Sequence record: NC_055721.1
Length of the DNA stretch: 64,000 nucleotides
From: Escherichia phage EcS1
Reading direction: 5' to 3' (one strand)
In this document: in pieces, positions 40,200 through 43,262 of the stretch
Layout: every line of letters starts with the position of its first letter
Position numbering within the stretch: position 1 is the first letter of the stretch
The notes under the pieces: generated by a model
What the model saw: the letters and a program-made list of their open reading frames with translations, nothing else
What the model was told of the DNA's origin: nothing
Database searches by the model: none
Translations under genes and position numbers: made by a program

Positions 40200-40284
40200 T
40201 GGTGCATCGAGAGGGATTCGAACCCTCAATCCTCGCGGCGTGGCATTTTAAGTGCCATGTGTATACCAGTTCCACCATCGATGC
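40200..40284 (-). tRNA. tRNA-Leu (anticodon UAA)
   Basis: 85 nt class-II tRNA; anticodon arm TGGCA-CTTAAAA-TGCCA, T loop TTCGAAT, CCA encoded. Confidence 0.8.
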
Positions 40285-40288
40285 GAAT

Positions 40289-40364
40289 TGGTCGAGACAG
40301 TAGGGATCGAACCTACGACCTAGGACTTAGAAGGTCCTTGCTCTTCCGTCTGAGCTATGCCCCG
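40289..40364 (-). tRNA. tRNA-Arg (anticodon UCU)
   Basis: 76 nt; anticodon arm AGGAC-CTTCTAA-GTCCT, T loop TTCGATC, CCA encoded. Confidence 0.75.
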
Positions 40365-40537
40365 TCTTTGTATAAACGTTCTAAGTAAACATGCTCCATC
40401 GGTTTAACGATTTCGCCTTGTTTCAATAATTGTGTTTGAATAGGATTCAAATTATAAAATTTGATCACATCTCTGAGATCTTGTTCGCTATAATTAAAAG
40501 TTCCTACTTCTACTCCGATTTGCATAAGTATCCTTTT

Positions 40538-40624
40538 TGGAGCTAGGAGTGAGATTCGAACTCACGAAAGCATAACGCTACTGGATTTGCAATCCAGCGC
40601 CTTTGACCACTCGGCAATCCTAGC
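40538..40624 (-). tRNA. class-II tRNA with anticodon GCA (Ser/Tyr-type architecture, Cys anticodon)
   Basis: 87 nt; perfect acceptor stem GCTAGGA/TCCTAGC, D arm GCC-GAGTGGTCAAA-GGC, anticodon arm CTGGA-TTGCAAA-TCCAG, long variable arm, T loop TTCGAAT, CCA. Confidence 0.65.
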
Positions 40625-40755
40625 AAATGTTCAGGTGGGAGTCGAACCCACACGATTGAAGCCTCTCATCGGGTTACCTCTTACTCAGCTGGGTGCTTAA
40701 ACCAGCGTTTCAAACAGAGTCCGCCAACATGTCTACCGATTCCATCACTGAACAA
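40625..40755 (-). ncRNA. tRNA-like structured RNA, about 130 nt (possible stable-RNA analogue)
   Basis: canonical T arm GTGGG-TTCGACT-CCCAC and 7-bp acceptor pairing, but the ends are about 130 nt apart and no standard anticodon arm was found. Confidence 0.3.
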
Positions 40756-40758
40756 TTT

Positions 40759-40983
40759 TTACATATCTACTTGACAAAACCAGTTCATTTCAAAATATTC
40801 ATCAAAATGTAATGCAGGTTCTACTTGACAATTTTCTTCTAATAAGACCAAATTTCTTCTAACAATAGGGTCTAATGACGTGATGGTCAAAGCACTATCA
40901 TGATAGTAAATCAGAACACGAAGCGAATCTGTATCAACTAAATACCGAACATTCATATCAGGATGTTTGTAGAGGTTAATCAT
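40759..40983 (-). CDS. hypothetical protein
   Basis: 74-aa ORF. Confidence 0.35.
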   Translation of the reverse strand: MINLYKHPDMNVRYLVDTDSLRVLIYYHDSALTITSLDPIVRRNLVLLEENCQVEPALHFDEYFEMNWFCQVDM

Positions 40984-40989
40984 AACATT

Positions 40990-41436
40990 TTATCCTTGAA
41001 GCATTTCACGAACACGATAAAGATTAGAACAGAATTCTTGTTCAGTTAGAACAGTTTCATTCTTTTTATTCTTACCCATGCTATGAGTTAATGTTGAGTT
41101 ACGCGTAGCTAGGAGTGCTCTCTTGAATCCTTCATTCAAAGCCAGAGAATCATATGCTCGCTGAATTAAAGACGTATAGGCTATACTTTGACGTAAAATA
41201 GGGACACCTTTCCAGTACAACGTTTGGGTGCGCCACCAGTTCTTTTTCTTACCTTTGAACTTAGCTTTCTTACCAACTAATGTACAGACATGCTCTTGCA
41301 TTTCTACTGAAGAAAACTTCAATGATTGCAAGAAACCTTCCATTGATGCACACTGTACTCCATCAATTTCGAAAGCATGAGGAGCAAAGTTACTTAATGC
41401 ACAACTTGGGTACATTGAACCTGAACCAATATCCAT
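40990..41436 (-). CDS. NADAR (YbiA-like) domain protein
   Basis: 148 aa; SNFAPHAFEIDG...SMEGFLQSLKF, KRALLATRN, NLYRVREML align with remembered YbiA/NADAR blocks. Confidence 0.7.
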   Translation of the reverse strand: MDIGSGSMYPSCALSNFAPHAFEIDGVQCASMEGFLQSLKFSSVEMQEHVCTLVGKKAKFKGKKKNWWRTQTLYWKGVPILRQSIAYTSLIQRAYDSLALNEGFKRALLATRNSTLTHSMGKNKKNETVLTEQEFCSNLYRVREMLQG

Positions 41437-42951: not shown

Positions 42952-43262
42952 GTTGATTGTACGGAACGCCTGGATTCGAACCAGGTTACAAAGCAGTTGA
43001 CGCTCCTTTGTATTTTGTAAGGCCATCATCTCGACCATATCCGAACGTTTCGTCAAAAACGCTACTCGGCTTATGGCAAAGACAAATCCTCGAACCGATA
43101 ATTGGTGGGAGCTGTTGGTAACGATCCAACCTCTCGAGCTCTTCAGGCAAGCGCTAATCCGTCTCAGCTAAACTCCCAGATCCACAAGAACTTTACAAGC
43201 ATTGCGCTTAACCTTTTCAGGAAGTTAGGGTACTATTTCTAGTCTGTGGTTATCCCTATTTT
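42952..43262 (-). ncRNA. structured non-coding region inside tRNA cluster (tRNA-like fragments)
   Basis: contains a canonical T arm CCTGG-TTCGAAT-CCAGG at about 42967-42985 and several hairpins but no complete cloverleaf was found by eye. Confidence 0.25.

Follow-up and report, generated by a model that had tools for sequence, protein, structure and literature searches.

A tRNA-like RNA gene with a tRNA-Leu-derived frame and an exchangeable central arm in Escherichia phage EcS1 and related T4-like phages

We analyzed a 64,000-nucleotide (nt) stretch of the genome of Escherichia phage EcS1 (sequence record NC_055721.1; this whole stretch is hereafter the window), which belongs to a T4-like myovirus (Straboviridae) near Winklervirus and Karamvirus, and we focus here on a 128-nt element of its minus strand that resembles a transfer RNA (tRNA) gene. 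All window tRNA genes called by ARAGORN are on the same strand. The element lies between an open reading frame (ORF) of 74 amino acids (aa), which itself comes after the gp30.3 gene (PF08010, E = 1.5e-57), and a class II tRNA gene, after which follow a small ORF and the genes for tRNA-Arg(UCU), tRNA-Leu(UAA) and tRNA-Thr(UGU). A first-pass annotation, made from the letters of the sequence, had proposed a tRNA-like RNA gene next to the tRNA cluster at 40625-40755, and these limits are right to within 2 nt. The T arm (GTGGG-TTCGACT-CCCAC) and the 7-bp pairing of the ends (TGTTCAG/CTGAACA) on which it relied are both present on the minus strand, and the ends, which it placed about 130 nt apart, enclose 128 nt including the discriminator base. 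As it also observed, there is no standard anticodon arm: no 5-bp anticodon stem with a 7-nt loop holding U33, an anticodon and R37 is present in the element. The features of the locus are as follows, in window coordinates.

40627-40754, minus strand: whole element, 128 nt with the discriminator U (40627), a tRNA-Leu-derived tRNA-like RNA
40748-40754, minus strand: acceptor stem, 5' strand UGUUCAG, paired with 40628-40634
40729-40745, minus strand: D arm of class II Leu type, 3-bp stem AUG/CAU and loop GAAUCGGUAGA
40669-40727, minus strand: long arm of 59 nt with three helices, in place of the anticodon stem-loop (RNAalifold consensus)
40724-40727/40669-40672, minus strand: arm stem 3
between stems 3 and 4, minus strand: arm internal loop 1, CGGA/GUAAC
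40716-40719/40678-40681, minus strand: arm stem 4
between stems 4 and 5, minus strand: arm internal loop 2, GUUUGAAAC/UGAGUA
40701-40706/40688-40694, minus strand: arm stem 5
40695-40700, minus strand: arm apical loop UUAAGC
40652-40668, minus strand: variable region of 17 nt, UGAGAGGCUUCAAUCGU, at the class II variable-arm position and aligned to the tRNA-Leu variable arm by the covariance model described below
40635-40651, minus strand: canonical T arm, GUGGG-UUCGACU-CCCAC
40628-40634, minus strand: acceptor stem, 3' strand CUGAACA, with a UU spacer after it and the next tRNA from 40624
40759-40983, minus strand: upstream ORF of 74 aa, its stop codon ending 4 nt short of the element
40538-40624, minus strand: downstream class II tRNA called Cys(GCA) by ARAGORN (Rfam, 59.1 bits), starting 3 nt past the discriminator

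No CCA is encoded at the 3' end of the window element, and a sequence profile search found the long arm once within the window.

Covariation among orthologous copies is the decisive evidence that this element is structured. An alignment of 14 copies (A2) was the basis of an RNAalifold consensus and of a covariance model (R1), which recognizes the window copy over its full length with 147.2 bits (E = 1.7e-38); a further, model-guided alignment (A3) contains 23 copies, 21 of them distinct. To control the pairing counts, partners were slid along the alignment. The consensus of the 14 copies consists of six helices: the acceptor, the D stem, the T stem and three helices of one long arm. Among these 14 sequences 96.6% of cells are paired, compared to 36-47% in the slid controls, and double changes occur at 22 pairs (2-7 in the controls). 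Among the 21 distinct sequences 95.4% of cells are paired (slid controls, 35-46%), and compensatory double changes occur at 24 of the 29 pairs, compared to 4-9 when partners are slid.

Counted over the 21 distinct sequences, all seven acceptor pairs have double compensatory changes. Variants include GUACCA/UGGUAC in Cronus and UACUCAG/CUGAGUA in CW742, and the acceptor of Kosakonia phage 305 is wholly different yet perfectly paired (AUUUGUU/AACAAAU). The T stem and stem 4 are 100% paired and covary at three of five and at four of four pairs, respectively; covariation is also found at all six pairs of stem 5, two of the three in the D stem and two of the four in stem 3. Stem 5 further contains compensations within an arm type, in Virsaitis27 and in the copies labelled L104 and L137. 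Outside the helices, the elbow nucleotides U8, A14, R15, G18, G19 and A21 and the T-loop GGUUCRA..CC are invariant in the 14-copy alignment, as are a set of unpaired arm bases (A37, UUGA, G81 and A83-A84 in columns of that alignment). Pairing in the variable region, faintly suggested by eye, lies outside the tested structure. The tRNA frame and the arm architecture are under purifying selection.

The combination of features exceeds chance. On the minus strand of the window there are 19 T-arm-like hairpins, compared to ~1.4 in mononucleotide shuffles (both strands), and the chance expectation for a T arm joined to a 7-bp acceptor is 0.08 per window. Isolated hairpins of this kind (5-bp stem, UUCRANY loop) outside the tRNA region, at ~4869 (minus strand) and ~49734 (plus strand), fit in number the chance level of ~1.4 per window. 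Standard tools pass over the element: ARAGORN makes no call at it, in normal mode or without introns, and the Rfam scan that the first-pass annotation had proposed as a check returned no family there, neither at the gathering score nor at E<=10.

Orthologues occur in about 220 T4-like phage records of Enterobacterales. The BLAST matches are T4-like phages of Serratia, Kosakonia, Erwinia, Klebsiella, Raoultella and Enterobacter, among which the locus is constant, between the gp30.3 region and the Arg-Leu-Thr tRNA cluster. Carriers are found in Winkler-, Karam-, Jiaoda-, Kanagawa-, Roskilde- and Marfavirus; T4 itself does not have the element. A family-specific pattern retrieved members only in T4-like contigs of ~170 kb, and a single weak match (27.6 bits), judged not to be a member, turned up among 185,579 bacterial and archaeal genomes. 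The orthologues are essentially never annotated as such. GenBank holds two labels, 'tRNA-OTHER' (128 nt) and a 133-nt 'tRNA-Ser', and a few records have a 34-aa hypothetical ORF over the element; the 'hypothetical protein' features that cover it in EI, CW742, Vettismorki and the Roth phages are likely spurious. In PQ657792.1 (Roth19), PQ657822.1 (Roth78) and other Klebsiella phage records, an 'anti-CBASS protein acb1' or 'hypothetical protein' is annotated over the 5' part of the element; such coding-sequence calls across the RNA gene have probably been extended too far or are spurious. As an explanation of the element a small ORF fails, since every frame has a stop in at least one of the 14 copies, a result that also answers the concern raised in the first-pass annotation that the region might be protein-coding in homologues.

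The frame itself points to tRNA-Leu. The best matches of the covariance model outside the family are tRNA-Leu of T4 (46.9 bits) and tRNA-Leu(UAA) of the window (46.2 bits), and tRNA-Leu genes align to the model end to end, with ~44 arm positions deleted exactly at the position of the anticodon loop. By this alignment, the element is a class II tRNA-Leu frame in which a 17-nt anticodon stem-loop has been replaced by the 59-nt three-helix arm. The canonical features of a tRNA are there: a 7-bp acceptor stem, a D arm with G18 and G19, and a T arm with a UUCRA loop. The D arm had escaped the first-pass annotation; the UG in front of it, its 3-bp stem and its loop form a tRNA-Leu signature. With the window tRNA-Leu(UAA) (40200-40284) the element has in common the 7-bp acceptor, UG at 8-9 and the 3-bp D stem with a GAAUYGGUAGA loop, and with class II tRNA-Leu the variable region, the T arm and all tertiary elbow nucleotides. 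Unlike class II tRNA-Leu, it has the 59-nt arm, no anticodon, a discriminator that is not fixed as A73, and no ARAGORN or RF00005 call. The parts follow the standard order from acceptor and D arm to T arm and acceptor, and the 3' half is not upstream of the 5' half, so that a circularly permuted tRNA, one of the options the first-pass annotation had listed, is rejected.

A73 is a major identity element for leucyl-tRNA synthetase in E. coli. The window copy of the element has U as its discriminator; taken over all copies, each of the four bases occurs there, and the base differs even between copies that are 97% identical. Because this base is unconstrained, leucylation of the element RNA appears unlikely.

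By their arms, the copies sort into three discrete types. The window, Winklervirus and Roskildevirus carry type A, whose arm core occurs in 13 phage records; type B is that of Marfavirus, some Jiaoda-, Karam- and Kanagawavirus and PEi20 (64 records), and type C that of other Jiaoda- and Karamvirus genomes (144 records). Arm types do not follow taxonomy. M12a and KPV15 have gp30.3 proteins that are 100% identical and elements that are 68% identical, and for CW742 and myPSH1140 the corresponding values are 99% and 58%, whereas M12a and EI, from different genera, have elements that are 97% identical. A windowed comparison of M12a and KPV15 locates the difference: identity is 100% over the 600 nt upstream and the acceptor/D-arm frame, and again over the T arm and ~110 nt downstream, but falls to 38-57% in the central ~80 nt. 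The variable region is inside this divergent cassette and is exchanged along with the long arm. These comparisons show that the arm is exchanged as a cassette among phages by recombination. When IMG/VR and metagenomes were searched for the constant frame with an unconstrained middle, only arm types A, B and C were recovered, so that the variation consists of a few old alleles that recombine and is not open-ended hypervariability. Allelic exchange of an arm inside a constant tRNA frame is, as far as we can tell, new.

The window locus (40355-41436, minus strand) is itself a mosaic. Its gene order (gp30.3, 74-aa ORF, element, class II tRNA-Cys) is that of the Karamviruses CW742 and myPSH1140, its arm is of the Winklervirus type and 98% identical to that of Serratia phage X20, and its gp30.3 is 96% identical to that of Erwinia phage Virsaitis27. 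The downstream tRNA called Cys(GCA) is itself of note: in its 87 nt it combines a D arm of Ser type (GCCGAGUGGUCAAAGGC) with a long variable arm, its discriminator is U73 and its CCA is encoded, which makes a body unusual for a cysteine tRNA. Its homologues in CW742 and fGh-Ecl01 are annotated as tRNA-Cys, and it may be charged with Cys or Ser.

Several candidate motifs in the arm were considered and set aside. A sarcin-ricin/loop E motif (AGUA/GAA) or a kink-turn in the conserved internal loops was examined by eye, and the strand adjacency it requires is not met; a possible tandem G.A pair is the only such internal-loop feature conserved across arm types, and we make no claim for it. The Shine-Dalgarno-like AAGAGGU in the 3' strand of the arm was dismissed, being paired in stem 4 with no ORF after it, and the residues of hammerhead-like CUGAUGA/GAAA motifs are not conserved in types B and C.

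We put at about 0.9 the probability that the element is a functional structured non-coding RNA derived from tRNA-Leu. That the arm exists in three types, exchanged among phages, suggests that the non-coding RNA is functional and not a defunct tRNA. A number of observations weigh on the other side. The minimum free energy of the single sequence is not unusually stable relative to shuffles (z = 0.18), so that support for the element rests on comparative data; of the RNA folding that the first-pass annotation had proposed, the consensus of six helices came out positive and single-sequence stability negative. The 21-sequence counts come from an alignment fitted to the covariance model and are therefore biased toward it, and much of the covariation falls between the three arm types, so that independent events are fewer than the cell counts suggest. 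With only three arm types, what looks like an exchangeable module may reflect recombination in a region rich in homing endonucleases rather than selection. No recognizable RNA motif, partner or target of the arm was identified, and the transcript and its processing are deduced from the sequence.

On balance we lean towards a mechanism in which the tRNA frame acts as a scaffold for processing and stability and the arm as the functional module. The element would be co-transcribed with the upstream ORFs and the downstream tRNAs. Within the minus-strand unit from the 74-aa ORF through the tRNAs there are no terminator-like sites, and promoter and terminator scans at the locus gave nothing above shuffle expectation. 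RNase P would cut at U1 of the element, which offers a U at -1, a 7-bp acceptor and an intact elbow, and would cut again at the 5' end of the tRNA that begins 1-5 nt downstream (3 nt in the window). The setting is a U at -1, no encoded CCA and, in 18 of the 21 copies, a next tRNA 1-5 nt downstream; in Cronus, FBB1 and Kosakonia phage 305 no tRNA comes after the element. In the window, the element and the tRNA called Cys(GCA) are likely partners in a dimeric precursor. The short trailer would then be trimmed and CCA probably added by host enzymes, leaving a stable RNA of ~128-131 nt; T4 tRNAs without an encoded CCA also have CCA added. The frame would thereby serve as the scaffold, and the arm as a functional, exchangeable module, most likely a putative binding site for a protein or RNA partner.

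A more specific version of this explanation, to which we give a low probability, makes the RNA a counter-defence decoy: the frame would lure a host immune or toxin enzyme that targets tRNAs, the non-cleavable arm would trap or block that enzyme, and the arm types would match different host factors. Phage tRNA sets are known to counter anticodon nucleases, and the decoy would fit a perfectly conserved tRNA frame whose anticodon arm has been replaced, a location in the phage tRNA cluster, and allelic arm swaps between near-isogenic phages of a common host genus. However, the three arm types bear no sign of ongoing diversification and do not map cleanly to host genus, and Rfam reveals no similarity to a known RNA anti-defence element.

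Less probable again is that the element acts in cis, its tRNA-like fold recruiting RNase P between the upstream mRNA and the tRNAs in the manner of tRNA punctuation, with the excised RNA having no function. The spacing is what such a processing element would require, 4 nt past an ORF stop and 1-5 nt before a tRNA in most genomes, and no local promoter or terminator signal stands out. But the first downstream tRNA would already supply an RNase P site, and three genomes (those named above) have no tRNA after the element. Cis-processing also leaves unexplained a 59-nt arm with compensatory changes and invariant internal-loop bases, as well as the upkeep of three old arm alleles.

The first-pass annotation had raised a likeness to the small stable RNAs of T4. 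T4 rnaC (species 1, 139 nt) and rnaD (species 2, 119 nt) are small RNAs of the tRNA region with no role assigned (PMC3014915; PMC9697503), and infected cells have been shown to contain RNAC as a stable small species (PMC9697503). EcS1 has its own rnaC:

42960-43098, minus strand: rnaC orthologue, 85% identity over 139/139 nt (nhmmer E = 1.3e-26)

Because this true rnaC is separate, the element is not the rnaC of EcS1. The likeness is one of design. Like the element, rnaC pairs its two ends in an acceptor-like stem, where an A-U of T4 is compensated by a G-C of the window copy, and it combines a canonical T arm with an expanded middle that covaries; both T4 RNAs lie in the T4-like tRNA region, abut tRNA genes and are of similar size; unlike the element, rnaC has no Leu-type D arm. 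Its distribution also differs, being mainly Tequatrovirus with Karamvirus and Kanagawavirus. On these comparisons we take the element to be an analogue of rnaC in design and probably not a homologue, so that of the earlier suggestion the analogy stands and orthology does not.

That it might nevertheless be an orthologue or a very divergent homologue of rnaC or rnaD we consider very improbable. Beyond the common neighbourhood, size class and layout of rnaC, most genomes place the element next to tRNA-Arg(UCU), the neighbour of rnaD in T4, and by eye the element shares short motifs with rnaD (CGGACU, CUGAGUAAGG). Against this, a true rnaC exists separately in the window and, beside the element, in the Karamvirus CW742; and the element lies upstream of tRNA-Arg, whereas T4 rnaC and rnaD are downstream of it. 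With its filters off, the covariance model gave 15.5 bits on T4 rnaC, on the acceptor and T arm only, and nothing on rnaD; nhmmer --max, queried with the full element and with the arm by itself, had no match in the T4 rnaC/rnaD region at E<=100; and a naive MAFFT alignment with the T4 small RNAs was uninformative. Once generic acceptor and T-arm features are set aside, no homology of sequence or structure can be detected between the element and rnaC or rnaD, and no intermediate sequences that would connect the families with significant profile or covariance-model scores were found.

The rnaC of the window lies between an aberrant tRNA-like gene and tRNA-Trp. That gene (43106-43177, minus strand) is found by Rfam only (36 bits; gathering score 29), with no ARAGORN call; its T-loop, AUCGUUA, is non-canonical, its CCA is encoded, and it is located 7 nt upstream of rnaC, which is the rnaD slot in T4. 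An rnaD homologue is not detectable in the window. A four-sequence consensus fold of rnaC contains paired ends, the T arm, a covarying hairpin with a conserved loop GCGUCAAC and a large 5' domain. In Kosakonia phage 305 (contig L147) a divergent rnaC-like RNA (425-560) precedes a type B element (634-762) by ~75 nt; on the opposite strand, the annotation has a 42-aa 'hypothetical protein' that spans both RNAs, and no tRNA follows the element.

Equally improbable is a functional decoding tRNA with a small intron or an elongated anticodon arm, the intron having been a further suggestion of the first-pass annotation. The tRNA frame is complete; the UUAAG in the apical loops of type A recalls the anticodon loop of a Leu(UAA) tRNA, and the 7-nt loops of type B (UUGGUAC, UUAGUAC) have positions that resemble U33 and A37; for the window copy, the intron mode of ARAGORN yields tRNA-Leu(AAG) with a 39-nt intron; and GenBank has the labels tRNA-Ser and tRNA-OTHER. 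The intron-mode calls disagree among copies, however, giving Leu(AAG), Ser(GGA), Pro(CGG), Pro(AGG) and Phe(AAA), and none in 6 of the 14. No conserved anticodon loop is rebuilt: loops built from the residues on either side of the arm would be 9 nt long and have no conserved U33, and the apical loops vary from 6 to 9 nt, with no sequence conservation among arm types. The insert is only about 50 nt and matches no group I or other intron model, the arm is conserved as a structure, unlike a discarded intron, and to our knowledge bacteria have no tRNA splicing endonuclease. Lacking an anticodon loop, the element RNA cannot decode.

Least plausible of all is a decaying tRNA-Leu pseudogene with an insertion, akin to the degenerate tRNA of the first-pass annotation: rejection by tRNA finders, the unconstrained discriminator and a first pair that is U-A or a C.A mismatch would suit it, but it is effectively refuted by covariation, with compensatory changes in every helix including the inserted non-tRNA arm and invariant elbow nucleotides, in elements that retain 88-98% identity across genera where the flanking DNA has diverged and are kept at one locus in about 220 genomes.

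The general kind to which the element belongs is known, from the tRNA-like stable small RNAs of T4-type tRNA clusters and from tRNA-mimicking non-coding RNAs such as YrlA, and the element is a third, independent family of the general design of rnaC and rnaD. The family is not in Rfam, and no description of it was found in the searchable literature. Engineered 'tRNA scaffold' RNAs, in which a foreign RNA replaces the anticodon arm for stable expression in E. coli, resemble the element in their intact acceptor/D/T frame with a cargo in place of the anticodon stem-loop, and they rely on host tRNA processing and stability; unlike them, the element is a natural, conserved phage gene with an evolved arm. 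The bacterial YrlA Y RNAs mimic tRNA and bind Ro60/Rsr. Their ends sit in the Ro-binding stem, whereas the ends of the element form an acceptor stem, as in a real tRNA. The element has no Rfam match or sequence similarity to YrlA or Y RNA, and no rsr is present among the adjacent genes (gp30.3, small ORFs and tRNAs). The YrlA of M. smegmatis is trimmed before CCA is added, and the authors proposed that the tRNA fold gives protection from nucleases (PMC4201824). A transfer-messenger RNA (tmRNA) was rejected: ARAGORN and Rfam report none, pair 3:70 is U-A and not G3:U70, and there is no conserved open frame.

Unrelated viral contigs in IMG/VR contain tRNA-like genes 93-177 nt long, in which the acceptor, a D arm of Leu type and a T arm are intact but the centre holds large insertions:

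L052, 2212-2331 and 2818-2932: long tRNA-like genes
L055, 2005-2128: long tRNA-like gene
L080, 10087-10232: long tRNA-like gene
L088, 1688-1812: long tRNA-like gene
L113, 4950-5076: long tRNA-like gene
L132, 1234-1350: long tRNA-like gene
L026, 5114-5226: long tRNA-like gene
L077, 7827-7956: long tRNA-like gene
L039, 3623-3743: long tRNA-like gene
L139, 326-463: long tRNA-like gene
L138, 1480-1604, 1682-1774 and 1839-2015: trio of long tRNA-like genes after a tmRNA

Several lie in tRNA clusters and some reach the Rfam tRNA threshold, and ARAGORN calls none of those in L138 and L139. Some 15 long tRNA-Leu-like matches in unrelated viral contigs were rejected as family members, since the frame aligns and the inserts do not, and we treat them as analogues. 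They may belong to a wider phenomenon of tRNA frames that carry a cargo; their restriction to Leu is an ascertainment bias, as the search pattern required a Leu-type D loop.

The small stable RNAs of the T4 tRNA cluster have been without an assigned function for about fifty years. The element is carried by about 220 phages with sequenced genomes, whose hosts are Klebsiella, Enterobacter, Serratia, Erwinia and related bacteria. Many of these phages are candidates for phage therapy, and for the carrier genomes annotation pipelines should drop the labels tRNA-Ser, tRNA-OTHER and hypothetical protein at the element. Nature also provides the pairs with which the function of the arm could be tested by allele comparison or swap: in M12a/KPV15 and CW742/myPSH1140 the flanks and frame are identical and the arms are different. 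As a speculation to which we give limited credence, an intact tRNA frame may serve phages as a natural scaffold on which exchangeable RNA 'cargo' arms are displayed, and the family may be an RNA-based factor of host takeover or anti-defence, for example a decoy. Were this so, phages would be trading the three arm alleles as variants of specificity, and T4 rnaC and the unrelated 113-177-nt viral tRNA-like RNAs would be further instances of the same strategy. If the logic of frame plus cargo holds, it would explain why phages retain tRNA-like RNAs that do not decode, and would add a class of RNA to the tools with which they manipulate their hosts.
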